Origin: a virus | Taxonomy: Duplodnaviria; Heunggongvirae; Uroviricota; Caudoviricetes | Virus record (IMG/VR): IMGVR_UViG_3300012347_000364 | Span: 158,826-222,825 of that record | Strand: one strand, 5' to 3' | DNA: 64,000 nt | Shown: positions 7,372-56,409 of the stretch, piece by piece | Layout of the letters: every line of letters starts with the position of its first letter | How positions within the stretch are numbered: position 1 is the first letter of the stretch | Position numbers and translations under genes: made by a program | The notes under the pieces: model-generated | The model's database searches: none | The model's input: the letters and a program-made list of their open reading frames with translations, nothing else | What the model was told of the DNA's origin: nothing

Positions 7372-10212
7372 ATGGCACGCAAGTTTGTTTCAAACTATAC
7401 TTTTACCGCAAGTACAAAAACCCTTAAAATAGCTGGATTCGTTCCTCAACACAAGTTGTTGATGGTTACACACATTCCGTCTGGTACTGTGCTGCAGCAA
7501 TTCGCTGCTCCTGATAGTGGCGTCACATCATATTCGTACGATCAATCATCTACTGCATTGGATACTGATTCGGGCGTGACCACATTCGTGCTGGAAAATC
7601 CATGCACTGGCGTAACCGATAATGACATTTTACAGATTGTAGTCGAAGAGAATCAGATCACTACTCGTCCCTTTGACTTTGGCGTAGATGCGATTGAGCG
7701 TACTCGTGTATCGAACCCTCAAAGTATGATTGACGCTGACTTTGAATATGGTCTGCAAGGTACGAAATGGCAAACATACAACTCGGTCAATAATATTCCG
7801 GGCATTTACGAATTGCCTGGTCAAGATATTACGATCACATCCATCACCACAAACAACACATCTCCATACTCTACCATCACCGTGACAGCTAACGGTCATG
7901 GTCTTGCGAACGGTAGTGCTGTTACGATGTTTGGTTTAGAAAACGATCCACCAACAGCATCGCGCGCAGAAGGCGCGTTCTTGGTTAAGACCCCAACAAC
8001 AAATACATTCACGTACGTCGCTAAGGGCTATGTTGGCCCAGCAAACAACACTGTATTGTCTACACAATATACAACGGCTCGTAAGGCTGGATTCTATTCT
8101 ACATCTAGCATTCCGTTCACGTCAATGTCGTCGAGCGGAGCAAACCCATCAGTAATTACTGTGACTACATCGGCACCACACGGTCTGGTGCCTGGCCACA
8201 CGTTGATTACTGATATATCGACTACAGGCAACAACCACCCATTAGTCGAAGGTAACTTCTTCGTTGAGTCCATTCCGTCCTCAAACAGTTTTACGTTTAC
8301 GGCGTTGTCTGGTGGTGCTGTTGGCGCCGGGCTAGCCAACTCAGTTGCTGTAGTATACTCGCGTTCAGATGCTTTCAACGTCCATCGCCCCTTCGATGGT
8401 GGTGTGTTAATTGGTCCAGATAGCCCTGCGCATGGATCGCGTGTGATGCGCTCGTCGAAAAAATATTTCCGCTACCAGTCAGGTAAAGGCTTGCTGTGGT
8501 CTTCTGGTACATTGCTGCATCCAAACTATGATGTTGAATCTGTAACAGCATCTGGTACTACAATTGGTTCGGCTATCACAATCAGAACGGAGCAAAACCA
8601 CGGCTTGCAGGCAGGCGCTACAGTCGTTTTGTCGGGTGTTGATACTTCTGGATATAACGGAACTTATGTTATAGGCACGATTGTATCTACGCAAGAATTT
8701 ACTGTGACTGCAGCAGTGGTGCTAGGATCCGCAACAGCTTCACTAAGCGCACAACCACGTATTGCTGTTACTGCATGGCATGGATCTACTATCCGTGCAG
8801 GTATGTTTGATGATCAAAACGGATTGTTCTGGGAGAGTGATGGACAGAAGGTATACGCTGTAAAGCGCAGCTCCACGTTCCAGCTAGCTGGTACAATGAG
8901 TGTAGCTAACAACAGTACTGCTGTTACGGGAACTTTGACGCGTTTTGCTGAACAGCTGCGCGCAGGTGATCGTATCGTTATTCGTGGCCAGACGCGTCTT
9001 GTCACTAGTGTAGCTAACAACACGTCAATGTATGTGTCTCCTGCTATACGTATCAGTGGTGCTGCTTCTATTGCCGGTATTAAGGCCACTCTTACCATTG
9101 ATACGCGCTATCCACAAGAGGATTTCAACCACGATCGCTTAGATGGTACAGGTGATTCTGGATTTACCTTCAACGTCAATAAGATGCAGATGTTGGCTAT
9201 CCAGTACTCGTGGTATGGTGCCGGTTTTGCTGATTTTATGATTCGTGGTATTAACGGTAACTTCGTTACAGCACATCGTATCAAGAATAACAACGTTAAT
9301 GATGAAGCATATATGCGTTCTGGTAACTTGCCAGCACGTTATGAGATTGTTAACGACACACCACGCACGTTTACAGTCGCTGCAGCCAACGCTACCGTAA
9401 ATGCAATCAGCGTATCTAATACCTACACGTTCCCATCATCTGGCACGCTGTATATTGATAATGAAATGTTATCGTATACTGGTAAGACTGCAAATACGTT
9501 TACTGGGTTGACCCGTGCTGCGTCATTGACCCAATACGCTGGCGGTTCTGGTAGAACATTTACCGCTGGGGCTGCTGCATCGCATGCTAACAACTCCGGT
9601 GTTCAATTGATTAGTTGCACATGCTCGCCGACCCTATCGCACTGGGGCTCTTCTATTATCATGGACGGTGGATTTGATAGCGATCGTGGTTACTTCTTTA
9701 ACTACGCGCAGACAAACATCGCGGTTACTGCAGCAGCAACGAAGACTGCTTTCTTAATTAGATTAGCACCAACAGTAAGTAACAGCATCCCAGGAGACAT
9801 GGGATTGCGTGAGTTGATTAACCGATCACAGATCTTGCTGGAGAGAATTGAGATTGTAAGCTCACGTAATGCTCAGATTACTGGTATTTTGAATCCGTCA
9901 GGCATCACATCCACTACATGGTCTAATCTGAACACCTCAGGGTTCGGATCACAACCATCGTTTGCTCAAGTATCTGCTTCATTCACGGGCACAGCAGCCC
10001 CAGGTGAACAGATCTTCTCTACTATAGCCTCAGCCGCTGGCGGTTTGACTACTGTAGATTTATCAGCTCTTAAAGAACTAGGCAATTCGGTAATTGGTGG
10101 TTCGAACCAGTATCCGGACGGCCCAGACGTACTTGCTATCCAGATTAAGAACTTAGACGCCCAAAACGCTACAGTTCAAATTAACTTATTCTGGTCAGAA
10201 ACACAGGCTTAA
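7372..10212 (+). CDS. Large virion structural protein
   Basis: 946 aa; RVSNPQSMIDADFEYGLQ motif and repeated ITVT...HGL domains seen in T4-like aquatic phage structural proteins. Confidence 0.7.
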   Translation: MARKFVSNYTFTASTKTLKIAGFVPQHKLLMVTHIPSGTVLQQFAAPDSGVTSYSYDQSSTALDTDSGVTTFVLENPCTGVTDNDILQIVVEENQITTRPFDFGVDAIERTRVSNPQSMIDADFEYGLQGTKWQTYNSVNNIPGIYELPGQDITITSITTNNTSPYSTITVTANGHGLANGSAVTMFGLENDPPTASRAEGAFLVKTPTTNTFTYVAKGYVGPANNTVLSTQYTTARKAGFYSTSSIPFTSMSSSGANPSVITVTTSAPHGLVPGHTLITDISTTGNNHPLVEGNFFVESIPSSNSFTFTALSGGAVGAGLANSVAVVYSRSDAFNVHRPFDGGVLIGPDSPAHGSRVMRSSKKYFRYQSGKGLLWSSGTLLHPNYDVESVTASGTTIGSAITIRTEQNHGLQAGATVVLSGVDTSGYNGTYVIGTIVSTQEFTVTAAVVLGSATASLSAQPRIAVTAWHGSTIRAGMFDDQNGLFWESDGQKVYAVKRSSTFQLAGTMSVANNSTAVTGTLTRFAEQLRAGDRIVIRGQTRLVTSVANNTSMYVSPAIRISGAASIAGIKATLTIDTRYPQEDFNHDRLDGTGDSGFTFNVNKMQMLAIQYSWYGAGFADFMIRGINGNFVTAHRIKNNNVNDEAYMRSGNLPARYEIVNDTPRTFTVAAANATVNAISVSNTYTFPSSGTLYIDNEMLSYTGKTANTFTGLTRAASLTQYAGGSGRTFTAGAAASHANNSGVQLISCTCSPTLSHWGSSIIMDGGFDSDRGYFFNYAQTNIAVTAAATKTAFLIRLAPTVSNSIPGDMGLRELINRSQILLERIEIVSSRNAQITGILNPSGITSTTWSNLNTSGFGSQPSFAQVSASFTGTAAPGEQIFSTIASAAGGLTTVDLSALKELGNSVIGGSNQYPDGPDVLAIQIKNLDAQNATVQINLFWSETQA

Positions 10213-10215
10213 TAT

Positions 10216-11544
10216 ATGGCATATATCGGTCAAGATATTGGAAGTAGAACGTCGAGAACTACTTCCACATTCACCTCAGCAAATAACCAAACAACATTCT
10301 TCCCGAATGGTGGGTATACACGAGGGTTTGTGGATGTATTCGTCGACGGAACTAAGAAACAAGACGGCGTCGACTACAACGCAAACAATAGCTTGTCTGT
10401 TGTCTTCACTAGTCCGGTGTCGAATGGAATGGTTGTCGAGACGGTAGCATACTCTCCTCTAGCATTGTGGACACACGTTGCTAGAACGGGTGATGCTATG
10501 ACAGGCGATCTAACCGTTCCTAGTCTAATCGCATCCAACAACGTCACTGGATCGAACGCTACGTTCGGTTCAATGAAGATCAACACAGGATTGACTGTTA
10601 ACAACGCACTGGTGGTAACTGGTCCGCTGACGCAAACTGGTGATGTTGCTCTTACAGGCAACTTGGTGCTTACAGGCAGTTTGATTATTACTGGTAACGC
10701 TACATCGGTTGCAACGCAATCGTTGGAAGTTGAAGATACGATCATTAAACTTGGTGCTAATAACAGTTTAGACACGCTTGACATCGGTTTCATTGGCCGA
10801 TACAGCAATGGTACTGCAAACGTGTGGTCAGGGCTTGTGCGCGATGCTTCAGAGCAGCACTATTGGCTGTTCACCGATTATACAGGCACCGTTAACAACA
10901 ACATTGACATCAACCATTCGAGTTTTGTTCTTGGAACAATGCACGCCAATTTCGAAGGTAATGTAACGTCAAACAACGTGCTCGCTACCGTAGTTAACGC
11001 TGGTAATGTCAACGTAACATCGTCATTGACAATCACCGGTGATGCTGCTGGTATTAAACAAAATACTACTACGGTATATGGTGGCGATGCTGGTGTTGGA
11101 TTTGGTCGTATCGAGTACTACAATAATGCTTGGGTATTCAACGCCGGCTCCGATAGCTCAGATGTAGCTATCTTCCAACGCGGCAACGAAGTTAAAGCTG
11201 TCATAGATAATACAGGAACATTTAGCGGCACAGCTAATAACGCATCTTATTTGGGTGGCGTTATATCTTCTAGCTATGCGCTCAAAGCCAACCCAACATT
11301 CACTGGTACTACCACTACAGCTGTTTTAGCTGCTGGCAATACTACTATCACTGGGTTCGCAAACGTTTCTACTACATTACAAGTAACTGGTGCAGCTACT
11401 TTTAGTAACACAATCAACGCTACTGGTTTGATTACCGGTACGATCACTACTGCAAACAACGCAACTTATTTAAATAGCCAAGCAGCATCTTATTACCTAG
11501 ATCTGGCTAACGCAACTGGCACTTTAAATGGGGGAACGTATTAA
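10216..11544 (+). CDS. Tail-fibre-like virion protein
   Basis: MAYIG start; shares segments with 1..1111 and 1427..4018; ends LNGGTY. Confidence 0.7.
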   Translation: MAYIGQDIGSRTSRTTSTFTSANNQTTFFPNGGYTRGFVDVFVDGTKKQDGVDYNANNSLSVVFTSPVSNGMVVETVAYSPLALWTHVARTGDAMTGDLTVPSLIASNNVTGSNATFGSMKINTGLTVNNALVVTGPLTQTGDVALTGNLVLTGSLIITGNATSVATQSLEVEDTIIKLGANNSLDTLDIGFIGRYSNGTANVWSGLVRDASEQHYWLFTDYTGTVNNNIDINHSSFVLGTMHANFEGNVTSNNVLATVVNAGNVNVTSSLTITGDAAGIKQNTTTVYGGDAGVGFGRIEYYNNAWVFNAGSDSSDVAIFQRGNEVKAVIDNTGTFSGTANNASYLGGVISSSYALKANPTFTGTTTTAVLAAGNTTITGFANVSTTLQVTGAATFSNTINATGLITGTITTANNATYLNSQAASYYLDLANATGTLNGGTY

Positions 11545-11556
11545 CGAGGATATATT

Positions 11557-12129
11557 ATGAGAGGTGAGTGGGCTTACTTTAAGGGATTTTTTAGTCCAGA
11601 AGAATGCAAGCAGATTGTTGAGGCAGGATTAAATATTCCAGCAGAAAGAGCAACAATTGGTTATGGTGATAGCAACGTTGTTGATAATGAATTTCGCCGA
11701 ACGAATATCAGATGGCTTCAGCGCAATGATAGTACGTGGGATCAATTGTATCAGGGGTTTGAATATTGTGCAAAGCGTGCCAATGAAGATTACTTTGGCG
11801 TTGAGTACAACAACTTACCATACATACAACTTGCGGAATATGATGCGAAGTTTGAAGGCGAGTATAAAAGACATGAGGATGTGTTTTGGGTAACCGACAG
11901 TCCTTATCATAGAAAATTAACGGTAGTCGTCCAACTATCAGATCCAAAAGAATACGAGGGAGGGAAGTTCGAATTTTTTGACTGCGCTCAGTATCCGGAT
12001 GCAGATGAGATCATACAACAAGGAACAGTTATTGTGTTCCCTAGTTTAAAGTTTCATGCAATGCAACCAATCACCAAAGGGGTGAGATACAGTTTAGCAG
12101 GATGGTTCGAAGGTCCAAAATGGAGATAA
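11557..12129 (+). CDS. 2OG-Fe(II) oxygenase (prolyl-hydroxylase-like)
   Basis: HxD (HED), RKLT, YEGG.F, FPS..FH...P...G.RYSL motifs. Confidence 0.9.
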
Positions 12130-12130
12130 G

Positions 12131-13279
12131 ATGCCAGCAATAATTATAAAGAACTCACAAACAGCACTATCCGTGCCAACCGCTGGTTCCCTGCAGGTCG
12201 GGGAACTAGCTATTAACACAGCTGATATTAAGATTTATTCTAAGCACAGCAATGGTTCTATTGTACAACTAGCATCAACAGGTCCGACAGGCCCTGCCGG
12301 CCCAACAGGGCCTACAGGATCGCAAGGTCCTACAGGAGCTCCTGGCCCTACTGGCCCTACAGGACCAACAGGTCCGTCTGGCGCGCCATCTAGTGTAGCC
12401 GGTCCTACTGGCCCTACAGGCCCTAGCGGACCAACAGGTCCTACCGGTACAGCTGCTACATTATCTGTAGGTACTACAACGACAGGTCCAGCTGGTGGCT
12501 CTGCAAACGTAACCAATTCAGGCAACAGCTCAGTTGCTGTTCTAAACTTTACTATCCCTACTGGCCCTACTGGCCCTACAGGACCAACTGGATCTCCTGG
12601 TCCTACTGGTTCGACAGGACCAACTGGTAGTGCTGCTACCGTTACAGTAGGTACGACTACAACTGGCCCAGCCGGTGGCGTAGCGAACGTTACCAACTCT
12701 GGTACATCAACAGCAGCAACTCTCAACTTTACAATCCCTACCGGACCATCAGGCCCTACCGGCCCTACTGGTCCGACAGGCGGTCCAGGGCCAACAGGTT
12801 CTCCAGGCCCAACAGGCCCTACCGGACCAACAGGTACAACCGGTCCTACTGGCCCCACTGGTCCTGCAGGTACTTCATATACGACTGCTTCCAACGTTCA
12901 ATTAAACTCATTGGGTATTGGTACAGCTGCATCCGCTACAGCTGGTGAAATCCGTGCGACTAACAACGTCACTGCTTATTATTCTGACGATCGTCTAAAG
13001 GTTAAGCTTGGCTTGATTGAAGATGCATTAGCCAAAGTCGAACAATTGAGCGGCTTCTATTATGAAGCAAACGAAGTAGCACAAGCGCTTGGATATAAAG
13101 TTCAGCGTGAGGTTGGTGTATCTGCACAACAAGTTCAAGGCGTAATGCCGGAAGTAGTTGCACCGGCTCCAATCGATGATAAATATCTGACAGTAAGATA
13201 CGAGAAGCTCATTCCTCTATTAATTGAGGCAATCAAAGAGCTGAAACGTGAAGTAGATATTTTGAAACAGGTGAAATAA
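12131..13279 (+). CDS. Collagen-like tail fibre with C-terminal intramolecular chaperone (peptidase S74-like) domain
   Basis: (GPT)n triplets; YYSDDRLK cleavage motif; GVSAQQV..V.PE.V and [12 protein letters not shown]. Confidence 0.85.
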
Positions 13280-13282
13280 TAC

Positions 13283-14221
13283 ATGACTCTACCAGCATCA
13301 GGTCAAATAGCATTAAGCGACGTTAACGTTGAATTGGCGCGTTCATCTACGACCCAGCTAGCAATGAACGATAGTATTGCTCGTACGTTGGCCGCTGTTC
13401 CTAGCGGCCAGATTGCTATGAGTAACTTCTATGGTAAGTCTAATAAGTTCAACTTCAGCGCAACCATTGGTCCTGCAACAGGATACAATATTCGTAGTGC
13501 TGCTGTTGCGGGTGGATGGCCGGGTGCAGTAGATGCTGCAGTTACTATTACCGTTTCTCCTGGTACAATCGTTGGTGCTAGTGGAACTGGTGCATATGCT
13601 ATGGATACTGGTACACCATGGCCAGCAGGCAGCACTATTACTGTTATTAACAATGGATCTATAATGGGTGCTGGCGGTGCTGGCGGTGCTGGCGGTACTG
13701 CAGGTTTGTCCACAGCTGCGCCTGGATCCGGCGGGTCTGCTGGCGGCCCAGCGTTTTATGCACAACGCGCCGTCATTATCACCAATAATGGAACGATTGC
13801 CGGCGGCGGCGGAGGCGGCGGTGGAGGCGGCGGTCGCTACCTAACTGGAGTTGCACCTGCGCCGCCAACAGCTGCTGGCGGTGGCGGTGGCGGCGGTGGT
13901 CAAGGATCTATAACTTCAAGCGGTGGCGCAGGCGGTGTAGCTAGCGCTGCTCCTGGTACAAAGACGCCTGGTACTGCTGGTGGTACTGGTTCTTCTGGTG
14001 CTGCTGGCGGTGGTGGAGCGGGCGGTACAGCTGGCACTGCTATTGGTGGGGCGGGCGCTGCTGGTGGTGGATTGGGGGCTGCTGGCGGTACTGGTGCTAC
14101 AGGCACTGGTGCTACGGGTGGTGGTACAGGTGCTGGTGGCGGTGGCGCTGGTAACTATATAACAGGCGGCGGGAATGCGACGTGGCCGGCCACAGGCACT
14201 CGTTTAGGTGGCGCTGGTTAA
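13283..14221 (+). CDS. Polyglycine-rich receptor-binding adhesin (T-even gp38-like)
   Basis: INNGSIMGAGGAGG, GGPA, NNGTIAGGGGGGGG and terminal GTRLG motifs; directly follows the fibre gene. Confidence 0.7.
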   Translation: MTLPASGQIALSDVNVELARSSTTQLAMNDSIARTLAAVPSGQIAMSNFYGKSNKFNFSATIGPATGYNIRSAAVAGGWPGAVDAAVTITVSPGTIVGASGTGAYAMDTGTPWPAGSTITVINNGSIMGAGGAGGAGGTAGLSTAAPGSGGSAGGPAFYAQRAVIITNNGTIAGGGGGGGGGGGRYLTGVAPAPPTAAGGGGGGGGQGSITSSGGAGGVASAAPGTKTPGTAGGTGSSGAAGGGGAGGTAGTAIGGAGAAGGGLGAAGGTGATGTGATGGGTGAGGGGAGNYITGGGNATWPATGTRLGGAG

Positions 14222-14238
14222 ACAACTAAGATTACATT

Positions 14239-14607
14239 ATGAAGACATATAGAACTAAATTAATTAGCGTTGATCGAACAAACGATACTGCGTGTGTAGA
14301 ATTTAATATAGTTGAGGACGATGAAGTCGTTTACACGTGTCATCATCACACGCCCATCAGACCTCACCCAGACTTAATCAGATGTGCCACACTCGAGTGC
14401 ATTAATAATATGGCAGCAGCAGAGCATGCGGCAAGAGATCGCACTGAGGTGTATTCCTACATCGATAGTATGTTGGGCAAGACGTTCGAATACACCGATG
14501 AAATGGTGAGGTTAGAAACAAAGCAGTGGACGAGGACTGCTGGTAACTATGACGACCGTAAAGCTCTAGTAGTTGAAGTTTTAATTGAAATGGGATTGCT
14601 GAAGTGA
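14239..14607 (+). CDS. Hypothetical protein, paralog family A
   Basis: C-terminal LVVEVLIEMGLL motif shared with 15086 and 16557. Confidence 0.65.
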   Translation: MKTYRTKLISVDRTNDTACVEFNIVEDDEVVYTCHHHTPIRPHPDLIRCATLECINNMAAAEHAARDRTEVYSYIDSMLGKTFEYTDEMVRLETKQWTRTAGNYDDRKALVVEVLIEMGLLK

Positions 14608-15089
14608 ATCTGTATGAGGGCCATTTACAGTTGTGCGTCGATTTTTTGTACGGGCGACACGGAAACACCACGCAGACCGACATAGTAATGCCATATTATG
14701 GATTTTCAGTATATAACATAGATACTAAATCTGTTATCAGTCATACGTATTATACTCGGTATGGGTCTGATCATATCAAAATAAAAAACAACAAGGTATC
14801 TGAATATTATCAGATGCAGACAAAAAACGGGCTTTCGTTTATATCATATGATGTTGATACTGGTCGCTCCCTAGAATATTACACAAGCATAGACAACGTT
14901 CAGCGTAAGTATGACTATTATACACATGAACTCATGCAAGAAAGCTTTCTCATCGATGAATATATGGAACTGCCACAAGACTTCCGCGACAACCTTAAAG
15001 GTAGTGTAGTTACACCATTAACGCCTATATTATGTTATGGTAGGAAGCCATATGGTAGAATTGTAGAGTATGTGGGGCCGCTGCCATGA
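14604..15089 (+). CDS. Hypothetical protein, paralog family B
   Basis: TRYG.DH.K, LP.DF, YG.KPYG motifs shared with 15414 and 15955. Confidence 0.65.
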   Translation: MNLYEGHLQLCVDFLYGRHGNTTQTDIVMPYYGFSVYNIDTKSVISHTYYTRYGSDHIKIKNNKVSEYYQMQTKNGLSFISYDVDTGRSLEYYTSIDNVQRKYDYYTHELMQESFLIDEYMELPQDFRDNLKGSVVTPLTPILCYGRKPYGRIVEYVGPLP

Positions 15090-15436
15090 TCGTTATAGAG
15101 GTCGTTAGCGTTAACGAGGAAGCAAAGCATATCACTGTGCGCGCACACAGAATTGATTGTGAAGAAAGCGTCTTATTAAACTTCGATGTCTCCACATGCA
15201 CTATTGATCCAATGGATTGGATCGCAGAACAGTTATATGGAATTCTTTATACACACACGCCCGAAGTTGTAAATCATACACGGAGTTGGGATTTGAGTGT
15301 GTACAGCGGCCGTCAGTACACCTATAATATGGAAGATTTGAATAGAATCAATCCAATCATTCCTAAAGATGGATCGCTTAACGATTTAAAATCAATTATC
15401 GTGGAGGTGCTCGATGAGCTCGGCATCGTCAGATGA
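15086..15436 (+). CDS. Hypothetical protein, paralog family A
   Basis: DWIAEQ and LKSIIVEVLDELGIV motifs. Confidence 0.65.
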   Translation: MIVIEVVSVNEEAKHITVRAHRIDCEESVLLNFDVSTCTIDPMDWIAEQLYGILYTHTPEVVNHTRSWDLSVYSGRQYTYNMEDLNRINPIIPKDGSLNDLKSIIVEVLDELGIVR

Positions 15437-15989
15437 GCTACTCGTATATAAGTTCTTTGCTGAGAAATATAAACTTCCAAATAAAATAGAGGACGCACCT
15501 ATAGCGTTTAAACCCGTACGTGTGTGGGACTGGTATGACGTTGACAGGCAAATAATTCATGCTAGCAATTGGCAAATTAGGTATGGCGTCGACCACGTTA
15601 AAGTAGAGAACTCGACCATAACTGATTTTTACAAGAAGACGCGACTAAACAACAAATTAATCGTCCGACGATACGATGTACATACTGGCGACTTGTACGA
15701 AAACTACATGTACGAAGGTGCGTACACACAGATAAAGCTCTCAATAGACGGTCGTGTAAAACAAACGAATATATGCGCCAGATACCCTGCGTTGCCGATA
15801 TATTTTAAAAATAAATTGGCCAGTCATCCCAACAAGCATCTTATTTGTGGTTATGGTATTAAACCGTATGGTAATATCGTCGCGTTTTGGACTAGTGAGG
15901 AGTTAATGCGTAAATACCTATACGGCTGGGCAATGCTTCCTTTAGATAATGTGATTGATGATGTTAGAATTATTAAAAGAATTATGTAA
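15414..15989 (+). CDS. Hypothetical protein, paralog family B
   Basis: YDVD, IRYGVDHVK, LP.YF, YGIKPYG motifs. Confidence 0.65.
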   Translation: MSSASSDELLVYKFFAEKYKLPNKIEDAPIAFKPVRVWDWYDVDRQIIHASNWQIRYGVDHVKVENSTITDFYKKTRLNNKLIVRRYDVHTGDLYENYMYEGAYTQIKLSIDGRVKQTNICARYPALPIYFKNKLASHPNKHLICGYGIKPYGNIVAFWTSEELMRKYLYGWAMLPLDNVIDDVRIIKRIM

Positions 15990-16560
15990 AACGCACCCGC
16001 TAACAGAAGAACATCTAACAGTATATAACTTCTTTAGTGATTGGATGGGTAGATCTCGTTGTATTACGCTAGAGCAGCTACAATCCGATGTAGCTTTGGA
16101 AGTGATACCGTTTTATGATGTTCCTCTGAAGTATTGGGAGGTGTATGACGTTGATAAGCGTCAGGCGATCAACTACTCATACATAACGAGGTTTGGCGTA
16201 TACGCATTGAAGTGTTTTAATGGTGTTGTAGGAGATGAAATATACCACTTCTCCAGAATACAATCTCCATTTTACCAAGTTAAGTATGATGTAGGTGGTT
16301 ATCCCAACCCATCCGAGGCTTATACTATTAGCTACGGCGACCTACCTACTGAGTATAAATGGAAGGTTGGCGCAAAACAATTCACACAACGTAATGCCAT
16401 CAGCACAGGATATTACCAGTTGCCGGAAGATTTCCGCAGAGACTTAGTTTCTTACTCTAATAAATATAACATTATAACATACTCCCGCAAAGTGTATGGT
16501 ACGCGGGTGGTGGTGTCGTCCCTCACAAAAATACCATTATCTTTTAATGCTTTATTATGA
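15955..16560 (+). CDS. Hypothetical protein, paralog family B
   Basis: YDVD, TRFG, LPEDF, YSRKVYG motifs; exact start uncertain. Confidence 0.6.
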   Translation: MMMLELLKELCKTHPLTEEHLTVYNFFSDWMGRSRCITLEQLQSDVALEVIPFYDVPLKYWEVYDVDKRQAINYSYITRFGVYALKCFNGVVGDEIYHFSRIQSPFYQVKYDVGGYPNPSEAYTISYGDLPTEYKWKVGAKQFTQRNAISTGYYQLPEDFRRDLVSYSNKYNIITYSRKVYGTRVVVSSLTKIPLSFNALL

Positions 16561-16961
16561 TCTCAAGCGATTTATCATATACGATTGAACAGGACGTAAA
16601 TCCTGGTAATATATTAGTCAAGTATACATGCCAAGGCCAGTCAACGTCTTTAGTGTTCGAATGCGAACAATTGCGTGTTGGCGCATATAATATTCCCGAC
16701 TATATTGCTCTCCAGGGAGCAAGGGCGTTTGCAGAGATTGCGCGCAATATTGAGTTACCCACCACCACACCTTCTGTAGAAGAGCTGAAGCAGGATCTTG
16801 TTGGTATGCAACGGTCATATACACCGCTTGAAATTTCAACAATAGATGACTTGCCTCGAGTGTCACAAGTCGCCGACCTCACTGGCATTGTATTGGAAAT
16901 CTTACAACAACAAGGTGTAATCAGCACTCAGCCTCAAGGGTTTGAAACATGGCCAAGATAG
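16557..16961 (+). CDS. Hypothetical protein, paralog family A
   Basis: DYIALQ and LTGIVLEILQQQGVI motifs. Confidence 0.6.
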   Translation: MISSDLSYTIEQDVNPGNILVKYTCQGQSTSLVFECEQLRVGAYNIPDYIALQGARAFAEIARNIELPTTTPSVEELKQDLVGMQRSYTPLEISTIDDLPRVSQVADLTGIVLEILQQQGVISTQPQGFETWPR

Positions 16962-17731
16962 TAGGTACGTTTGGTGGACTGGACCCCTCTGGAGGCGCTG
17001 GCGTCATTGCTGACGTTAAGACAATATCTCAGCTTGGTTGCTACCCCGTGACTGCATTATCTACAATCGTCCCACAAAACACCGTTAGAGTATATGGGTC
17101 GTATAATGTGTCCTACGATCAATTCGAACAACAGCTCGAATCAATATACGACGATGTGGCACCGCATGCAGTTAAGACTGGTGCTCTCGCTAGCTACATC
17201 CATGTTAAAATGATTGCTGATCGGGTAGGCGACATACCGCTGGTGCTAGATCCTGTTCTCGTAGCAAGTACAGGATCACAAATTGTCAGCGACGACACGC
17301 TCGCAGCTATTAAGGCCTTTTTAATTCCAAAAGCAACAATAATCACCCCAAACATACAAGAAGCATCCTTCTTATTAAACAGGACAATAAACACAATAGA
17401 CGAGCAACGTGATGCAGCGTATGAGTTGTTGTCGTTGGGATGCGATTATGTACTCCTTAAGGGAGGGCATGGCCACAGCGATATCATACAAGACGTGCTA
17501 GTTGGACAGGGTATCGGAGTCGCTTTTGAACATCCTAGAATCAGAACCAAAAACACCCACGGCACTGGATGCACACTATCTGCTGCAATCGCTTGTAACC
17601 TGGCAAAGGAAATGGATGTTTGCTCAGCAGTAGAATTAGCAATTGATTTTGTGTGCAATTGTATTAATCGAAGCAATGAAACGAAAATAGGGCAGGGCAT
17701 AGGACCTGTATTACAATATGAATTACAATAA
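16949..17731 (+). CDS. thiD: Hydroxymethylpyrimidine/phosphomethylpyrimidine kinase (ThiD family), copy 1
   Basis: DPSGGAG..AD.KT, QNT, VKTG, DPV.VAS.G, TPN..EA, LKGGH, HGTGCTLS, IG.G.GP. Confidence 0.9.
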   Translation: MAKIVGTFGGLDPSGGAGVIADVKTISQLGCYPVTALSTIVPQNTVRVYGSYNVSYDQFEQQLESIYDDVAPHAVKTGALASYIHVKMIADRVGDIPLVLDPVLVASTGSQIVSDDTLAAIKAFLIPKATIITPNIQEASFLLNRTINTIDEQRDAAYELLSLGCDYVLLKGGHGHSDIIQDVLVGQGIGVAFEHPRIRTKNTHGTGCTLSAAIACNLAKEMDVCSAVELAIDFVCNCINRSNETKIGQGIGPVLQYELQ

Positions 17732-18533
17732 GACTGTTATTCCTGTGCTTACTATAAGCGCATCAGAGCCAACAGGTGGCGCTGGAACTTTTGCCGATCT
17801 GAAGACCATAACAACGCACGGTTGTTATGGTACTGCTGCTATGGTGGGTATTGTTTTACAAAACACTATGTCGATAGAGGATATCGTCTTCTTCGATAGC
17901 GCTTTGGTTGATCATCAGCTTAGTGTGTTGTTTAAGGACATTCCTCCGGTTGCTATGAAGGTCAGCGATTCGGGTGGTAAAGACACTATAGACGTAATTC
18001 ACCGATATGCGAGTGGGTGTAAGAATTTCATAGTGGATCCTGTATTAGTAGCTACTACAGGGGATCTACTATCAACAGAAGAGAATATAGAATATATGAA
18101 AAAGCGATTGTTTCCAATCGCTAGGATGATTACACCAAACATCGATGAAGCTAGTTTCTTGTGTGGGTTTCCTATTAAGAATCGAGATGATATGATCAGA
18201 GCTGGCCATAAGTTGCTCGAATATGGTTCTGAGTATGTTTTAATGAAGGGTGGTCACTTAGAAGACGATGTTGTGTTGGACATACTAATGAGTAAGGATC
18301 GTATCAAGGTGTTCCATCACAACCGCATAAATACTAAAAATATGCACGGAACTGGATGTGCTCTATCTTCGTCTATAATGTGTAATTTAGCTAAAGGGTA
18401 TGACGTCGAAGCATCTACCGAGCGGGCAGTTGCTTTTGTATATAATGGACTACTACAAAGTAAAGATTTATTTTTAGGGCATGGGTTTGGTGCTGTGTCT
18501 ACTTGTAATTTGATTGAAGTTGAGAGGGTATAA
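17718..18533 (+). CDS. thiD: ThiD-family kinase, copy 2 (divergent)
   Basis: EPTGGAG..ADLKT, QNT, DPVLVATTG, TPN.DEA, KGGH, HGTGCALS. Confidence 0.85.
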   Translation: MNYNKTVIPVLTISASEPTGGAGTFADLKTITTHGCYGTAAMVGIVLQNTMSIEDIVFFDSALVDHQLSVLFKDIPPVAMKVSDSGGKDTIDVIHRYASGCKNFIVDPVLVATTGDLLSTEENIEYMKKRLFPIARMITPNIDEASFLCGFPIKNRDDMIRAGHKLLEYGSEYVLMKGGHLEDDVVLDILMSKDRIKVFHHNRINTKNMHGTGCALSSSIMCNLAKGYDVEASTERAVAFVYNGLLQSKDLFLGHGFGAVSTCNLIEVERV

Positions 18534-18534
18534 T

Positions 18535-19716
18535 ATGGGTTCGAGTTTAACGTGTCGGGATAATATTAATTTATTTTTTAATATTGGTGTGAGCATATTC
18601 TTTATTCAGATAGGGATGTTATTTTTCCCCGGGTTGAATGTAATTGATTCAGTTGTGTGTGTGTTGGCTGGTACTGTAATTGGTACATGGATGTTATCTA
18701 AAATTGCTGAGATATCGGCGACGAATAACTTAACAACGGGCGAGATCTTCAACGAGGCGTTTGGCAGTAATCTAGGCACAAATCTATTGATTGGCATCAA
18801 CGCTTTTACGGTGGTAGGTTGGGCTGTACTGGAAGTAATGATCATTCAAAGCTTGGTCGCTGACCCGTTAGGAATCAGTCCTGTATTAGTTGCAATTGCA
18901 TCGGTTGCTGTCATTGCAGTGTTGTGTTTTACTAATGTGGTAGTTGCAATTAAAAAGGCAGTAGGTAAATATATTTCTCCTATATTGTATGCTGTAATGT
19001 TGTGGTTGACAGGCGTAGCAGTCGTTAACCTCGCCAACGTCGACATTGACACACTCAAACAAAGTTTACATACTGCAACAGGCGATATGCCTTTCTGGCT
19101 GGCTATGGATTTGGTGATTGCAATGCCGGTGTCGTGGGCGTTTATTATTAGCGAAATGACCAAACACTCAACCGATGGTAAGAGTGCTTTCCGCGGATCT
19201 TTCATCGGATACGCTATTGCTAATGCATGGTGCATGCTGCTGGGCGTAGCCTTTGCAATAACATCGCCAGGCACATTAGCAACCGATGTAGTATTAGCTC
19301 TACCGCTCGGGATACTGTTGGCATTTTTGATATCGTTAGCGGAACTTGACAATGGATACTCGAATGCATTATCAGCAATTGCTCAAGTAAATACGCTAAC
19401 AAAACAAACGTCAGACAAACTAATTGCTGCTGTTGTGTGTGTTGTTGTATTAGTATTGGCATTAACGCTCGATTTCTCGATGTATCAGTCGTTTGTGTTG
19501 GCTGTTGGATCAATTGTTGTTCCTGCATTGGGTGTGGTATTATCGCATTTTATTGGTGATATTAGAGGATCTTCCAAACAAGCGTTCTTTGCTTGGGCGG
19601 TTGGCTTAGTCGTTTACCAAGTCATAGCGAACTTTTTCCCGACAATCGGTGCAACGCTGCCTTCTATTGCGATCTCGTCTAGTTTGTACTGGATAATGTC
19701 TAAGTTCAACAAGTAA
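18535..19716 (+). CDS. NCS1-family (CytX-like) hydroxymethylpyrimidine transporter
   Basis: About 12 hydrophobic segments; VGW...E, MDLVIAMPVSW, ANAW...LG and ELDN.YSN..S motifs resemble CytX; adjacent to thiD; ATG 18535 preferred over TTG 18514. Confidence 0.75.
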   Translation: MGSSLTCRDNINLFFNIGVSIFFIQIGMLFFPGLNVIDSVVCVLAGTVIGTWMLSKIAEISATNNLTTGEIFNEAFGSNLGTNLLIGINAFTVVGWAVLEVMIIQSLVADPLGISPVLVAIASVAVIAVLCFTNVVVAIKKAVGKYISPILYAVMLWLTGVAVVNLANVDIDTLKQSLHTATGDMPFWLAMDLVIAMPVSWAFIISEMTKHSTDGKSAFRGSFIGYAIANAWCMLLGVAFAITSPGTLATDVVLALPLGILLAFLISLAELDNGYSNALSAIAQVNTLTKQTSDKLIAAVVCVVVLVLALTLDFSMYQSFVLAVGSIVVPALGVVLSHFIGDIRGSSKQAFFAWAVGLVVYQVIANFFPTIGATLPSIAISSSLYWIMSKFNK

Positions 19717-19783
19717 GTAAAGCGGGGGTTCCCGCTTTCTGCGAGAAAACGCAAAGATAAATAAGCCATATTAGGAGACTTAT

Positions 19784-20527
19784 ATGGCTGTTCCTTCATC
19801 CAGATCTGAATTTAAAGAGTACTGCTTACGCGCTTTAGGTAAGCCAGTAATCGAAATTAACGTCGATGACGATCAAGTAGAAGATCGTATTGACCAAGCA
19901 TTAAAATATTATGGTGATTATCACTTCGATGCATCAGAAAAGATGTATTACAAACATCAAGTCACTGACACTGACAAAATAAACAAATACATCACGTTGC
20001 CCGAAAACATTATCGGCGCAGTAAGTATCTTTTCGATTGGTGATCCATCAGTTCGTTCGGATGACTTGTTTAATATTCGTTACCAGATTGCTCTGAACGA
20101 TCTATACACACTGACCTCCGTTTCGCTTGTCCCATATTATATGGTGATGCAACATCTAGGCGTTATTCAGGAGTTGTTGGTTGGTAAGCAACCCATCAGA
20201 TATGCACGCCACCGAAATCGCTTACATATCGATATGGATTGGAATACTTTAAATTCTGGCGAATACTTATTGGTGGAAGCGTATGAAGTTATTGATCCGG
20301 AAATTTATACTGATGTATGGGGTGATCGTTGGCTTGCAGAGTATTGTGAGCAATTGATCAAGCGCCAGTGGGGCAATAATCTTAAAAAATATAACGGCAT
20401 GCAAATGCCTGGTGGTTTGACATTTAATGGGCAGACCATATACGAGGAAGCGGACGCTGAGATTAAGCGAATCGAGCAAGAAATGATTTCAAACTACTCG
20501 CTTCCTGTAATGGATATGGTGGGCTAA
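19784..20527 (+). CDS. gp13: Neck protein gp13
   Basis: YCLRALGKPVIEINVDDDQVEDRID; QWGNNLKKY.G..MPGG.T.NG; late promoter and GGAG upstream. Confidence 0.92.
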   Translation: MAVPSSRSEFKEYCLRALGKPVIEINVDDDQVEDRIDQALKYYGDYHFDASEKMYYKHQVTDTDKINKYITLPENIIGAVSIFSIGDPSVRSDDLFNIRYQIALNDLYTLTSVSLVPYYMVMQHLGVIQELLVGKQPIRYARHRNRLHIDMDWNTLNSGEYLLVEAYEVIDPEIYTDVWGDRWLAEYCEQLIKRQWGNNLKKYNGMQMPGGLTFNGQTIYEEADAEIKRIEQEMISNYSLPVMDMVG

Positions 20528-53587: not shown

Positions 53588-53662
53588 ACTCGATTCGTCT
53601 ATCGGTTAGGACATCAGGTTTTCAACCTGAGAAGAGGGGTTCGACTCCCCTATCGAGTGCCA
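53588..53662 (+). tRNA. tRNA-Glu(TTC)
   Basis: Cloverleaf, TCAGG-TTTTCAA-CCTGA, CCA end. Confidence 0.9.
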
Positions 53663-53755
53663 TATTTAAGCATGTTGGCTTGAACATGGGGTAATACCTT
53701 TGCCTAACGGCTCTCGGATACGCCCCTCAGTATTTCCAATATGTTTAAATATGGC
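53659..53755 (+). ncRNA. Long-stem CCAUA element 1
   Basis: GCCATATTTAAGCATGTTGG pairs with CCAATATGTTTAAATATGGC. Confidence 0.6.
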
Positions 53756-53756
53756 G

Positions 53757-53785
53757 TTGACTTTAAAAAGTCTTTATGTTATAAT
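53757..53785 (+). promoter_or_regulatory. Sigma70-type promoter (internal to tRNA array)
   Basis: TTGACT-17 nt-TATAAT with extended -10 TG. Confidence 0.8.
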
Positions 53786-53793
53786 AAACGCAT

Positions 53794-53867
53794 GCGGGAT
53801 TAGTTTAGTGGTAAAACACTTTCCTTCCAAGTAAGAGTTGCCGGTTCGATTCCGGCATCCCGCTCCA
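53794..53867 (+). tRNA. tRNA-Gly(TCC)
   Basis: Cloverleaf, loop CTTCCAA, CCA; U-U mismatch in anticodon stem. Confidence 0.9.
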
Positions 53868-53872
53868 ACAAT

Positions 53873-53947
53873 GCCCTTGTATCCTTAGTGGTAGAGGTCC
53901 TGTTTTGTAAGCAGGGTGTGGTGGTTCGATTCCATCCTGGGGCACCA
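53873..53947 (+). tRNA. tRNA-Thr(TGT)
   Basis: CCTGT-TTTGTAA-GCAGG, CCA. Confidence 0.88.
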
Positions 53948-54090
53948 TATTGAAGTATATTATTATCGCTCGTAAGGCGACCACCCGTGATAACATGGAT
54001 CATTCTTCGATGTTATCAATGCGAACACAAGGTGATGACTCCCCAAGATATAGAGAATGTGAGAGGGAGATGGTAGTGTATTTCAATATG
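53946..54090 (+). ncRNA. Long-stem CCAUA element 2
   Basis: CATATTGAAGTATATTATTATC pairs with GATGGTAGTGTATTTCAATATG. Confidence 0.6.
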
Positions 54091-54188
54091 ATGTGAATTC
54101 ATTGTGGCTATAGTGTGTACGGGCTGCGTCTCCATGCGGCTGCGGAGACTCATCTGGAGATGGCGACCAGACACATCATAAACAATTT

Positions 54189-54264
54189 GCGGCATTAGCT
54201 CAATCGGGAGAGCACAGCACTGTCACTGCTGAGGTAAGGGGATCGAAACCCCTATGTCGCGCCA
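54189..54264 (+). tRNA. tRNA-Asp(GTC)
   Basis: CAGCA-CTGTCAC-TGCTG, GCCA. Confidence 0.9.
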
Positions 54265-54274
54265 AGTATTTTTT

Positions 54275-54348
54275 ACCTGGATAGTTAAATGGCATAACAG
54301 TCGGCTGATAACCGGCCATCACAAGTTCGATTCTTGTTCTAGGTACCA
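54275..54348 (+). tRNA. tRNA-Ile(GAT)
   Basis: GTCGG-CTGATAA-CCGGC, ACCA. Confidence 0.9.
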
Positions 54349-54361
54349 GGGAAAGTTTTAT

Positions 54362-54437
54362 ACCGTAGAGTTCACCTGATGGTGATACTTCACTGTCTAT
54401 GAAGATGCGGCGGGTTTGATTCCCGTCTACGGTGCCA
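54362..54437 (+). tRNA. tRNA-Asp(GTC), atypical second copy
   Basis: CTTCA-CTGTCTA-TGAAG (U37); T-loop TTTGATT; GCCA. Confidence 0.75.
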
Positions 54438-54444
54438 AGTTTGT

Positions 54445-54523
54445 TGCGGGGTAGAGGAGTCCGGTCGTCCTCGCCAGTCTCATAAGCTGGAGATCGCAGG
54501 TTCAAATCCTGCCCCCGCTACCA
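54445..54523 (+). tRNA. tRNA-Met(CAT), initiator-like
   Basis: 1:72 mismatch, GCGGGG acceptor, loop CTCATAA; lacks the three G-C anticodon-stem pairs. Confidence 0.8.
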
Positions 54524-54530
54524 GTTTTAT

Positions 54531-54605
54531 TCCGAAGTAGCACAGCGGTAGTGCAGTTGACTGTTAATCAATTGGTCGCTGGTTCGATCCCAGCCTTCGG
54601 AGCCA
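54531..54605 (+). tRNA. tRNA-Asn(GTT)
   Basis: GTTGA-CTGTTAA-TCAAT, GCCA. Confidence 0.92.
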
Positions 54606-54610
54606 AATAT

Positions 54611-54684
54611 GCGTGGTTAGTTTAATGGTAAAATCAGACGTTGCCAACGTTTAGTTAAGAGTTCGATTCTCTTACCCCGCACCA
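54611..54684 (+). tRNA. tRNA-Gly(GCC)
   Basis: AGACG-TTGCCAA-CGTTT, ACCA. Confidence 0.85.
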
Positions 54685-54778
54685 AGTTATGAGGTGACGC
54701 TACAGTCGTAACTGCTCGAGCAGGAGAAGACAAAAAGCCTAAGCATGCAGATGAGCTCGCATGGCCTCGATTAGTTTT

Positions 54779-54837
54779 AGGATAGTTACAGCAATTAAAA
54801 AGCTAACTATGGTTGTCTAGCGACAAAAGCTATCCTG
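54779..54837 (+). ncRNA. AGGAU-clamp RNA 1 (minimal insert)
   Basis: AGGATAGTT-ACAGCAA ... AGCTATCCTG. Confidence 0.6.
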
Positions 54838-54846
54838 TTATTTTAT

Positions 54847-54928
54847 GGATGAGATGCTCTAATGGTAGGGCAGCAGGCTGTAACCCTGTGGCTTCGGCAA
54901 GTAGGTTCGATCCCTACCTCATCCACCA
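54847..54928 (+). tRNA. tRNA-Tyr(GTA)
   Basis: GCAGG-CTGTAAC-CCTGT, long V arm, ACCA. Confidence 0.88.
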
Positions 54929-54933
54929 CTCGT

Positions 54934-55019
54934 GGAGTCGTAGGAAAATTGGTAACCCCAGTGGACTGTAAATCCGCCGCCCTTGTGCACTACTGGTTCA
55001 ACTCCAGTCGGCTCCACCA
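54934..55019 (+). tRNA. tRNA-Tyr(GTA), second copy
   Basis: GTGGA-CTGTAAA-TCCGC, long V arm, ACCA. Confidence 0.88.
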
Positions 55020-55024
55020 ATTAT

Positions 55025-55098
55025 CTCGGATTAGTTTAGTGGTAAAACTCGTGGTTTGGGACCATGGGTCGGGTGTTCGATTCACCCATCCGAGACCA
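55025..55098 (+). tRNA. tRNA-Pro(TGG)
   Basis: CGTGG-TTTGGGA-CCATG, ACCA. Confidence 0.88.
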
Positions 55099-55266
55099 AG
55101 AATTAGTCGGCGTAATTAACCGAAAAGTAAGTAGTAGACGATCTTGCCACTTCGGTCGTCTTTGCAGTGTATACTGCGTCAGCAAAGGGCAACTGGATGC
55201 TGAGAAACACTGGGGTAAGAGTCCCAATTGATGGTGTGCACTAATTTAACGCAAAGAGAATTCTTT

Positions 55267-55346
55267 GCTCCGTAGAATCCGAGCCAGGTGCACGGACTTG
55301 ACTGTTAATCAATGACTAGCTGGGTTCGAGTCCCAGATACGGAGCA
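55267..55346 (+). tRNA. Atypical tRNA-Asn(GTT)-like RNA without encoded CCA
   Basis: TTGA-CTGTTAA-TCAA, T arm CTGGG-TTCGAGT-CCCAG; acceptor helix extends to about 14 bp. Confidence 0.6.
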
Positions 55347-55359
55347 AAGAGTTTTTAAT

Positions 55360-55434
55360 GGGGGCAGTAGAGGGCTACGGTGGTTCCTTGCAAGAATCAT
55401 GTCTAGATCGGTTCGATACCGACGGTCTCCACCA
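55360..55434 (+). tRNA. tRNA-Ala(TGC), atypical D arm
   Basis: GGTTC-CTTGCAA-GAATC, G3-U70, ACCA. Confidence 0.72.
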
Positions 55435-55473
55435 ATTTTATACTCGATTATAGTAAAGTATAGTCGATTATAC

Positions 55474-55548
55474 ACCCGGTTAGCTCAGGGGTAGAGCACA
55501 CGCTTGATAAGCGTTAGGTCGCAAGTTCAAATCTTGCACTGGGTACCA
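55474..55548 (+). tRNA. tRNA-Ile(GAT), second copy
   Basis: ACGC-TTGATAA-GCGT, ACCA. Confidence 0.88.
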
Positions 55549-55553
55549 GTTTT

Positions 55554-55620
55554 AGGATAGGTTCTGCAATCTTATAGAACACCAAACTTTTAATTTGACA
55601 CGTTCGTCAACACTATCCTG
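55554..55620 (+). ncRNA. AGGAU-clamp RNA 2 enclosing a Lys(UUU)-like anticodon stem-loop
   Basis: AGGATAG..CTGCAA ... CAAA-CTTTTAA-TTTG ... CTATCCTG. Confidence 0.6.
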
Positions 55621-55630
55621 TTGTATTTGT

Positions 55631-55706
55631 GGGGGTATAGCTCATCTGGTAGAGCAGGTGCTTTGCAAGCATCAGGTGGCGGGTTCGAGTCCTGTTGCCT
55701 CCACCA
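55631..55706 (+). tRNA. tRNA-Ala(TGC)
   Basis: Canonical cloverleaf, G3-U70, ACCA. Confidence 0.92.
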
Positions 55707-55804
55707 AGGTTTCGGCCGAAAGAAAACTGTTCGACGGGCTCTATGGGGTCGGAGCGTCCTAGAAAAGAACAGGGGTACGAGTCCCAAGTTCCCGCCAAAT
55801 TTAT

Positions 55805-55879
55805 GTACCATTAGACTTCTGGTGAGGTCATCACCCTTTCAAGGTGACTAGACGGGATCGTAACCCGTATGGTACTCCA
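55805..55879 (+). tRNA. tRNA-Glu(TTC), second copy
   Basis: TCACC-CTTTCAA-GGTGA; T-loop ATCGTAA. Confidence 0.82.
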
Positions 55880-55880
55880 A

Positions 55881-56178
55881 GGCAAATAGTAATCTTGTTT
55901 TGATGCATGGTTACTCAATGTTTGTTAGTTTCAATGGGTGCTATAGAAACTAACCCAAACACTAAGACAACACTTAGTAAGATGAGTAGACGGAAACCGA
56001 CCCAGGAGAGACTTCCTGGGCTTCACAGTGCGTGGACACGATGAGAAACGCAAGGTGACGAACGATAAGCAAAGTCGGTCCAGTAGGGGTAAGAAAAGTG
56101 TTGTCGGCGGAAAGAACTGCCGGACGTCAGAAGTTATGAGTGCGCTAGCATTTGATAACGCCGTGTATACGTACCACA
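55881..56178 (+). ncRNA. Candidate ~300-nt structured ncRNA of unknown class
   Basis: No credible ORF; long-range pair GACAACACTT/AAGTGTTGTC and several local hairpins. Confidence 0.45.
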
Positions 56179-56179
56179 T

Positions 56180-56254
56180 GGATTGTAAACTTTGAAGATG
56201 AAGTCCCGGCTCTTAACCGGCGAGAAGACAGTTTGAGTCTGTCACGATCCACCA
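56180..56254 (+). tRNA. tRNA-Lys(CTT), atypical D/T loops
   Basis: CCGG-CTCTTAA-CCGG; T-loop TTTGAGT; ACCA. Confidence 0.75.
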
Positions 56255-56404: not shown

Positions 56405-56409
56405 ATAAT

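Follow-up and report, generated by a model that had tools for sequence, protein, structure and literature searches.

A cassette of two diverged ThiD-family kinases and a CytX-like permease in a large T4-like phage from water, a candidate auxiliary unit for thiamine-pyrimidine salvage

We have analysed a 64,000-nt stretch of DNA (the window; positions given below are those of the window unless a contig is named) from IMGVR_UViG_3300012347_000364, a 222,825-bp T4-like virus record with direct terminal repeats which is 100% complete by CheckV and represents a large, uncultured, T4-like phage from water. Our interest lies in a cassette at 16949-19716 on the + strand, in which two full-length kinases of the ThiD family are followed by a complete but divergent CytX-like permease of the NCS1 type and then by the gene for gp13. 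ThiD-1 (16949-17731, +) encodes a protein of 260 amino acids (aa) and ThiD-2 (17718-18533, +) one of 271 aa, with the permease (18535-19716, +) comprising 393 aa when read from its ATG. The open reading frames (ORFs) of the cassette are tightly packed, being joined by overlaps of 13-14 nt or separated by a gap of 1 nt. For the permease, the ATG at 18535 is preferred both by gene callers and by alignment to the homologue in L119, one of three related phage fragments described below, and an upstream TTG at 18514 is the less likely start. This ATG lies 1 nt past the stop codon of ThiD-2, which gives the permease the linkage to thiD that is expected of CytX, and the arrangement is repeated in L119 and in a second fragment, L120. 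A sequence-only reading of the window had placed two ThiD kinases and a CytX-like transporter at these positions, and the ORFs, strand, coordinates and family matches determined here all agree with it. That reading took the genes for an auxiliary unit which imports hydroxymethyl-pyrimidine (HMP) and activates it, ThiD converting HMP to its phosphate (HMP-P) and diphosphate (HMP-PP) in the salvage of vitamin B1.

Both kinases match the Pfam family Phos_pyr_kin (PF08543; E 1.5e-77 for ThiD-1 and 2.3e-68 for ThiD-2) and, from end to end, the ThiD equivalog model TIGR00097, where their scores of 244.5 bits and 239.1 bits exceed the cut-off of 204.95 and place them within the family. Full-length matches to the ThiD structures 1JXH/1JXI, 1UB0, 4JJP and 7R8Y were likewise obtained (E 1e-41 to 1e-56). 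The two copies are only 39% identical to one another. Pyridoxal was among the substrates that the sequence-only reading had entertained, but a pyridoxal kinase now appears unlikely, given that ThiD-1 and ThiD-2 score 158.9 and 134.8 bits against the PdxK-type model NF009077 (Bacillus/Staphylococcus type), which has a cut-off of 385.

Residue conservation was scored against 237, and then 350, other ThiD homologues. Judged in this way, both copies keep GGAG with the Asp and Lys that follow it, QNT, DPV, TPN..E, KGGH, HGTGC and GxGxG, and so share with canonical ThiD all of its ATP-binding and catalytic motifs, including GTGC and KGGH. Where they differ from canonical ThiD is at near-invariant residues of the A-G-x-D loop and of the K-x-G-M motif, as well as at the Gln after GGAG and at a C-terminal His. 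The loop, in which Asp is found in 350/350 and Gly in 347/350 of the other homologues, reads S-A-S-E in ThiD-2, G-A-N-E in L119, G-C-F-E in L120 and S-A-P-E in the ThiD-2 of the third fragment, L121, and the exchange of Asp for Glu was seen in 0/350 kinases outside this CytX-adjacent clade; ThiD-1 (G-G-L-D) and its orthologue in L121 retain the Asp. At K-x-G-M, where the Gly is present in 350/350 and the Met in 331/350 homologues elsewhere, ThiD-1 reads K-T-G-A and ThiD-2 reads K-V-S-D, with S-D found in the ThiD-2 of both lineages that carry tandem kinases, G-A in ThiD-1, its orthologue and the L119 kinase, and G-M in that of L120. The Gln after GGAG has become a hydrophobic residue in 4/4 of the aligned phage-clade kinases (ThiD-1, ThiD-2, L119 and L120), and neither window copy retains the C-terminal His, with Q in ThiD-1 and T in ThiD-2 instead. 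The sequence-only reading had quoted the two N-terminal motifs correctly (GGLDPSGG in copy 1 and SASEPTGG in copy 2), and its remark that copy 2 lacks K.G holds true for the K-x-G-M motif but not for KGGH, which is kept in both copies.

In the ribokinase fold it is the N-terminal half that forms the substrate site. The changed positions would correspond to Ala10, Gly11, Asp13, Gln21, Gly79 and Met80 of the Salmonella ThiD-HMP structure (1JXI), where they may contact HMP. A match of the kinases to the PfkB sugar-kinase profile spans residues 100-239 only, and the altered positions of the N-terminal half fall outside it. These changes bear directly on what the kinases may act upon. The same chemistry could be applied to another substrate, such as an HMP analogue (a degradation product, or a compound like bacimethrin), 5-hydroxymethylcytosine, 5-hydroxymethyluracil or a B6 vitamer, and for a purpose other than thiamine supply. 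We regard this as the main rival to a role in thiamine salvage, albeit an unlikely one. It would account for the Glu in place of Asp and the Ala or Cys in place of Gly in the CytX-adjacent kinases, for the S-D of the tandem-lineage ThiD-2 and for the replacement of the Gln, all of which lie in the N-terminal half, and it would sit comfortably with a permease whose nearest solved fold is that of a cytosine transporter and whose identity to riboswitch-linked CytX proteins is 27-32%. On the other hand, TIGR00097 is the only model that the kinases passed, the QNT motif and the cysteine of GTGC are kept, thiD and cytX form the classic pairing of the bacterial thiamine regulon, and the phage encodes no ThyA-type hydroxymethylase that would supply 5-hydroxymethyl pyrimidine nucleotides. 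Hydroxymethyl-pyrimidine modification of the DNA was considered separately and rejected, there being no gene of the ThyA or dCMP-hydroxymethylase families in the phage in a search that did not include ThyX or TET-type enzymes.

For the permease, the CytX model TIGR02358 (thia_cytX) is by far the best match, aligning over model positions 2-383 of 386 with 147.9 bits (E 4.5e-43), compared with 24 bits (E 1.4e-5) for the generic NCS1 model; neither a Pfam match nor a PHROG family was found for it. An AlphaFold (AF2) model built from 30 sequences (predicted local distance difference test, pLDDT, 86.6; predicted template-modelling score, pTM, 0.86) superposes over its full length on the cytosine/Na+ symporter CodB (7QOA; template-modelling score, TM, 0.81/0.79) and on Mhp1 (2JLN; TM 0.77), and thereby predicts the 12-helix LeuT-type fold of NCS1 transporters. 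Identity to CodB and Mhp1 at the level of sequence is 16-18%, whereas profiles place the phage protein with CytX. Its closest relative is the L119 permease, at 39% identity, and of the permease in L120, at 53%, only the start is present.

The neighbouring genes leave the cassette in a phage setting between tail genes and gp13, as the sequence-only reading had proposed. Upstream lie six ORFs without assigned function, a fibre gene that has collagen repeats and an S74 chaperone domain, and a 2-oxoglutarate (2OG)-Fe(II) oxygenase, and downstream runs a series of genes for gp13, gp14, gp15, the small and large terminase subunits, sheath, tube and portal. The first of these, the neck protein or head-tail adaptor gp13 (19784-20527, +), was identified by phrog_211 (E 8e-41) and PF26809 (Phage_T4_gp13), and the large terminase subunit (TerL) shares 53-57% identity with the TerL proteins of Methylophilales phage Melnitz, Pelagibacter phage Mosig and cyanomyoviruses. 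Four further contigs, each from a different sample (two JGI and two Logan), contain the block with identical junctions on both sides, at 99.3-100% identity. The cassette is therefore found, as expected of an auxiliary metabolic gene set, in a viral genome with viral genes on both sides and reproducibly across assemblies, namely five assemblies and three diverged relatives.

These observations bear on whether the block might be misassembled host DNA, or else a recent passenger without function. The other ThiD matches in phage collections lie mostly on small or unannotated contigs, some of them at contig ends, which might raise such a suspicion, and the sequence-only reading had itself named a chimeric, host-derived assembly as the outcome that would overturn it. 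The junctions are, however, identical in five assemblies from five samples, on which ground we reject a chimera, and the GC content of the cassette is the same as that of its flanks. Cellular proteins are at most 46% (ThiD-1), 42% (ThiD-2) and 31% (permease) identical to those of the cassette, and the three diverged phage fragments share the cassette together with its neighbours. Taken as a whole, a misassembly or passenger origin is hardly credible. Across the five assemblies the cassette is invariant except in one contig of 7.4 kb, L006, which carries T>A and C>A at window positions 18224 and 18229 in ThiD-2 (L006:3896-4711), and all remaining variation lies within the fibre region at 8.5-14.5 kb. 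With an invariant cassette, the ratio of nonsynonymous to synonymous change (dN/dS) could not be computed among these assemblies.

The distribution of the cassette was followed through several collections. In GenBank phages no module of thiD and cytX was found, the ThiD homologues there being 30-41% identical and mostly in unannotated fragment records, and CytX giving one weak match. In IMG/VR, scans with single sequences and with bacterial profiles returned 26 ThiD genes standing alone and two CytX-like genes, each at the end of a contig, but neither tandem kinases nor a pair of ThiD and CytX beyond the phage's own record, which is in keeping with the inability of the sequence-only reading to recall such a module from T4-like phages. 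Scans with an alignment of phage-type CytX yielded nothing further in IMG/VR or in the JGI metagenome collection. Among the ThiD loci of IMG/VR, a ThiE neighbour was detected only at L029, true ThiE halves having served as the probe. The ThiD homologues have a PHROG family, phrog_8986, of unknown function. In a collection of 5.8 billion proteins, the nearest proteins other than the phage's own reached 31% identity to the permease, 42% to ThiD-2 and 45-46% to ThiD-1.

The decisive search was an exhaustive one with HMMER using ThiD-2, in which two proteins reached 238 and 229 bits, with all others at or below 198 bits; a third protein of note is an orthologue of ThiD-1. In all, three more distant phage fragments carry genes of the cassette (L119, L120 and L121), each a small contig with a GC content of 34-37%. 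L119 has a homologue of the ORF at 15955-16560, a 111-aa ORF, one ThiD-2-type kinase (44% identical) and the permease already described, as well as one gene of a PHROG family and two ORFs with homologues elsewhere in the genome of the phage studied here. L120 follows the gene order of L119 up to the start of the permease. L121 is collinear with the window. Upstream of its kinases stand three ORFs (37-51%), and the kinases themselves are orthologous to ThiD-1 (P0297, L121:1377-2156; 49%) and to ThiD-2 (78% over 181 residues). A small phage lineage has thus conserved the cassette, with a core of one ThiD-2-type kinase and the permease, and the tandem pair of kinases is present in at least two lineages.

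Comparison of the window with L121 also shows how unequally the two kinases have evolved. Synonymous sites are saturated (proportion of synonymous differences, pS, 0.74-0.93) and all ORFs remain open, and the nonsynonymous divergence (dN) is 0.16 for ThiD-2, 0.49 for ThiD-1 and 0.47-0.66 for the flanking ORFs. ThiD-2, which changes some three times more slowly than its neighbours, is the most constrained gene in the block and not a decaying copy, and ThiD-1 is the accessory, faster-evolving one. In P0297 the N-T-H-G-T-G-C context has become V-E-V-H-G-S-G-C and the last Gly-Pro of GxGxGP is lost, a hint of relaxed or altered constraint on the accessory kinase. In a phylogenetic tree, ThiD-2 groups with the L119 and L120 kinases (support 0.97) and ThiD-1 with P0297 (0.98), the two clades being sisters (0.94), all on long branches where long-branch effects are possible. 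From this tree the kinase pair would therefore derive from a duplication within the phage lineage, or else ThiD-1 would have been lost in L119 and L120. S-D is seen in no lineage with a single kinase, in line with the two copies having specialised reciprocally once duplicated.

The sequence-only reading had suspected that the two kinases differ in function, and this suspicion is strengthened by the changes at invariant N-terminal positions, by their conservation across phage lineages and by the very unequal rates. The same rates could instead mean that the working unit consists of ThiD-2 and the permease only, with ThiD-1 being either a redundant duplicate drifting to loss or a non-catalytic partner, and with no division of the phosphorylation steps. 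A single ThiD-2-type kinase does suffice in 2/4 lineages, ThiD-1 does evolve three times faster, and the motif losses in its L121 orthologue point the same way. Even so, ThiD-1 is intact in two lineages despite the saturated synonymous divergence and has kept all of its catalytic motifs in this phage, and the restriction of S-D to those ThiD-2 proteins that have a ThiD-1 beside them is in line with reciprocal specialisation. We therefore consider it rather improbable that ThiD-1 is dispensable in this manner.

To place the cassette beside its cellular counterparts we used a comparison set of 80 bacterial cytX loci, mostly from Burkholderiales, in which the permeases are 27-32% identical to that of the phage. 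One thiD lies within 6 kb of cytX in 58/80 of these loci and two in 0/80, and a riboswitch for thiamine diphosphate (TPP) stands 5' of cytX, or of a thiD-cytX operon, in six of the ten loci checked. The bacterial thiD-cytX loci (for example those of Polaromonas, Rhodoferax and Limnohabitans) resemble the phage cassette in pairing an NCS1 permease of the CytX type with a ThiD-family kinase, and in a few cases (L092 and L107) they have the same order of thiD and then cytX. They differ from it in that they hold one kinase and a TPP riboswitch, whereas the phage has two kinases and no riboswitch, in the structural-gene region of a lytic T4-like phage. They also differ in sequence, with the phage kinases being no more than 46% identical to theirs and altered in the substrate half. 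By analogy, the bacterial linkage of cytX to one thiD and to a TPP riboswitch favours a thiamine-pyrimidine role for the phage genes, and supports the view of the sequence-only reading that they may form an auxiliary unit for uptake plus activation. Two features of bacterial loci may be recorded here in their own right. A tRNA gene (68.4-68.7 bits) lies near cytX or thiD in the Burkholderiales-type loci at L092:5241-5313, L107:7248-7320, L038:8157-8229, L087:9785-9857 and L090:8310-8382, within about 100 bp of the end of cytX in L092 and L107 and 0.3-1.8 kb past a convergent thiD in L038, L090 and L087, and could be a landmark for the insertion of mobile elements. On a Marinobacter contig, group II intron RNA domains (L054:4344-4650) are found just 5' of cytX.

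No TPP riboswitch was detected at the gathering score in the whole window, nor was any other Rfam element near the cassette, with no match at E <= 1 in 14000-20500, such that the phage permease lacks the riboswitch that accompanies CytX. Directly 3' of the permease stop codon is a GC-rich hairpin of 8 bp with a weak T tail (19719-19738, +), and 20 nt 5' of gp13 stands the T4-type late-promoter-like motif GATAAATA (19756-19763, +), which marks the downstream boundary of the cassette. Within the window, 14 of the 15 ATAAATA sites are on the + strand, several of them just 5' of structural genes. No late-promoter-like motif was found in an intergenic gap before the cassette, and the cassette probably shares a transcript with the ORFs upstream of it.

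Gene identities, intact catalytic motifs, phage setting, conservation across lineages and loss of the riboswitch can be regarded as established, and from this footing we infer a substrate, a direction of transport, the use of a host ThiE and a division of labour between the kinases. On balance we lean towards a cassette through which the phage drives the uptake of HMP and turns it into HMP-PP for use by the ThiE of the host, the two kinases having diverged in function. The permease would take up HMP into the infected cell, the two ThiD-family kinases would carry it to HMP-P and then HMP-PP, and the host's ThiE, thiazole branch and ThiL would complete the conversion to thiamine diphosphate. A greater supply of this cofactor might then raise the activity of those TPP-dependent host enzymes that feed phage replication. 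Since neither ThiE nor TenA, ThiM or ThiC was found in the phage genome, the product of the kinases must feed host enzymes. With the riboswitch lost, uptake would follow the transcription programme of the phage, whatever the B1 status of the cell. The ancestral unit may have been one ThiD-2-type kinase with the permease, the second kinase, ThiD-1, having been kept in this lineage and one other and the pair having diverged in the substrate half. The most likely reason for having two kinases would be a division of labour, with for example one favouring HMP and the other HMP-P. Known ThiD enzymes phosphorylate HMP-P much more poorly than HMP (PMC2766623), which provides a rationale for keeping two diverged copies.

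What has been reported of CytX and of B1 nutrition in plankton is broadly consistent with such a role. On the basis of gene clustering and of its occurrence in genomes without thiC, CytX was predicted to import HMP, and transport of HMP was demonstrated for the plant homologue PLUTO (PMC5874261). Among plankton no B1 auxotrophy is commoner than that for HMP, and dissolved HMP is present at 0.1-50 pM (PMC11452348). The cultured relatives of the phage infect streamlined auxotrophs, namely Pelagibacter and Methylophilales of the OM43 type, which also speaks for HMP salvage. The host of the phage itself is probably a heterotroph; psbA and transaldolase, like transketolase or other TPP-enzyme domains, were not found in the phage genome.

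Several points weigh against HMP salvage. There is no TPP-dependent enzyme in the phage, and both a host ThiE and a host auxotrophic for HMP are assumptions. The permease score lies well under the TIGR02358 cut-off of 309.85, and in the 5.8-billion-protein collection the permease is at most 31% identical to any cellular CytX. HMP transport is without biochemical proof even for bacterial CytX (PMC5874261, PMC11452348), the specificity of which is still regarded as unproven (PMC11452348). The kinases deviate at positions of the N-terminal half (A-G-x-D and G-M, along with the C-terminal His) that are 95-100% invariant in 350 homologues, and on this sequence evidence the substrate could be a different one. 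In L006, the change at 18224 turns Tyr169 of ThiD-2 into a stop, so that the gene is called as two pieces of 168 + 96 aa, and this represents a rare null allele or else an artefact of assembly. Finally, a dedicated promoter for the cassette was not found.

The ORFs immediately upstream of the kinases may also be relevant. Three tandem paralogues of a family of ~190 aa, at 14604-15089, 15414-15989 and 15955-16560, share the motif LP.DF...Y.RK.YG, and family and profile searches found no known sequence family for them. The last of these (15955-16560, +; 201 aa, without assigned function) travels with the kinases in related phages, with homologues 5' of the kinase in L121 (51%), L119 (38%) and L120 (22%, a weak match). 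Its AF2 model (pLDDT 84) has three helices and approximately ten beta strands, and Foldseek gave nothing for it at E <= 1e-3; with VIA, the highest-scoring matches (Z 5-6.3) were to ABBA prenyltransferases (6.3) and lipocalin-like barrels, values that lie within the noise range of the tool. A TenA-like or ThiE-like protein was rejected on the predicted fold. Between this ORF and ThiD-1 lies one of 134 aa (16557-16961, +), without assigned function or family match, which overlaps the start of ThiD-1 by 13 nt and is conserved in L121 (37%), with ORFs of 111-125 aa occupying the same position in L119 and L120. The link of the ~190-aa family to the cassette may be positional only. A further explanation, which we consider doubtful, would be that the kinases form a phage-specific subfamily, recognisable by Glu for Asp and, in the tandem lineages, by S-D, which uses a different pyrimidine or splits the phosphorylations, with the diphosphate product perhaps being consumed also by these ~190-aa beta-barrel proteins. 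The only structural resemblance of the latter, a weak one, is to ABBA prenyltransferases, which use diphosphates. If true, this explanation would turn the block from a plain vitamin-salvage unit into a phage pathway of a new kind.

The gap that separates the tail genes from gp13 is known to vary and to accommodate auxiliary genes. In Melnitz the tail fibre genes run directly into gp13, and in HTVC008M a ferrochelatase and four 2OG oxygenases occupy this slot. The HTVC008M cluster exemplifies the auxiliary genes of aquatic T4-like phages (Kyanoviridae), which are, like the cassette described here, host-derived metabolic genes placed before gp13 and presumed to relieve a bottleneck of the host during infection. 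Some further features of the window deserve mention. All 137 mismatches to contig L003 fall within 8500-14500, and 14.5-29.7 kb has none except a 3-nt indel at 16675, making 8500-14500 a sharply bounded, hypervariable host-recognition block. At 11557-13279, the 2OG-Fe(II) oxygenase (PF13640, prolyl-hydroxylase-like) is directly 5' of the collagen-repeat fibre gene with its Peptidase_S74 chaperone domain, and the two could be an enzyme-substrate pair. The region 53588-63995 contains 31 tRNA genes, all on the + strand (Rfam, gathering score).

Host-derived auxiliary genes in aquatic T4-like phages are known already. What is new here is the content, namely the import and activation of a B1 precursor, together with the transporter and the fixation of changes where ThiD is otherwise invariant; a literature search found no paper on phage thiD or cytX genes, on B1-precursor genes of phages or on any phage NCS1 permease. 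The permease would be a rare example of a secondary transporter encoded by a phage. The kinases represent a natural experiment in ThiD specificity, in which positions invariant in cells were changed and then fixed across phage lineages, with the divergence of the two copies after duplication being asymmetric, and the cassette as a whole is a compact system of one permease and two kinases. Most aquatic bacterioplankton are unable to synthesise the pyrimidine moiety of B1, and compete for HMP at picomolar concentrations. If HMP uptake and activation is indeed the role of these genes, then B1 supply would limit viral production in nature, and infection would alter who takes up a traded vitamin precursor, thereby tying viral infection to vitamin cycling in natural waters.

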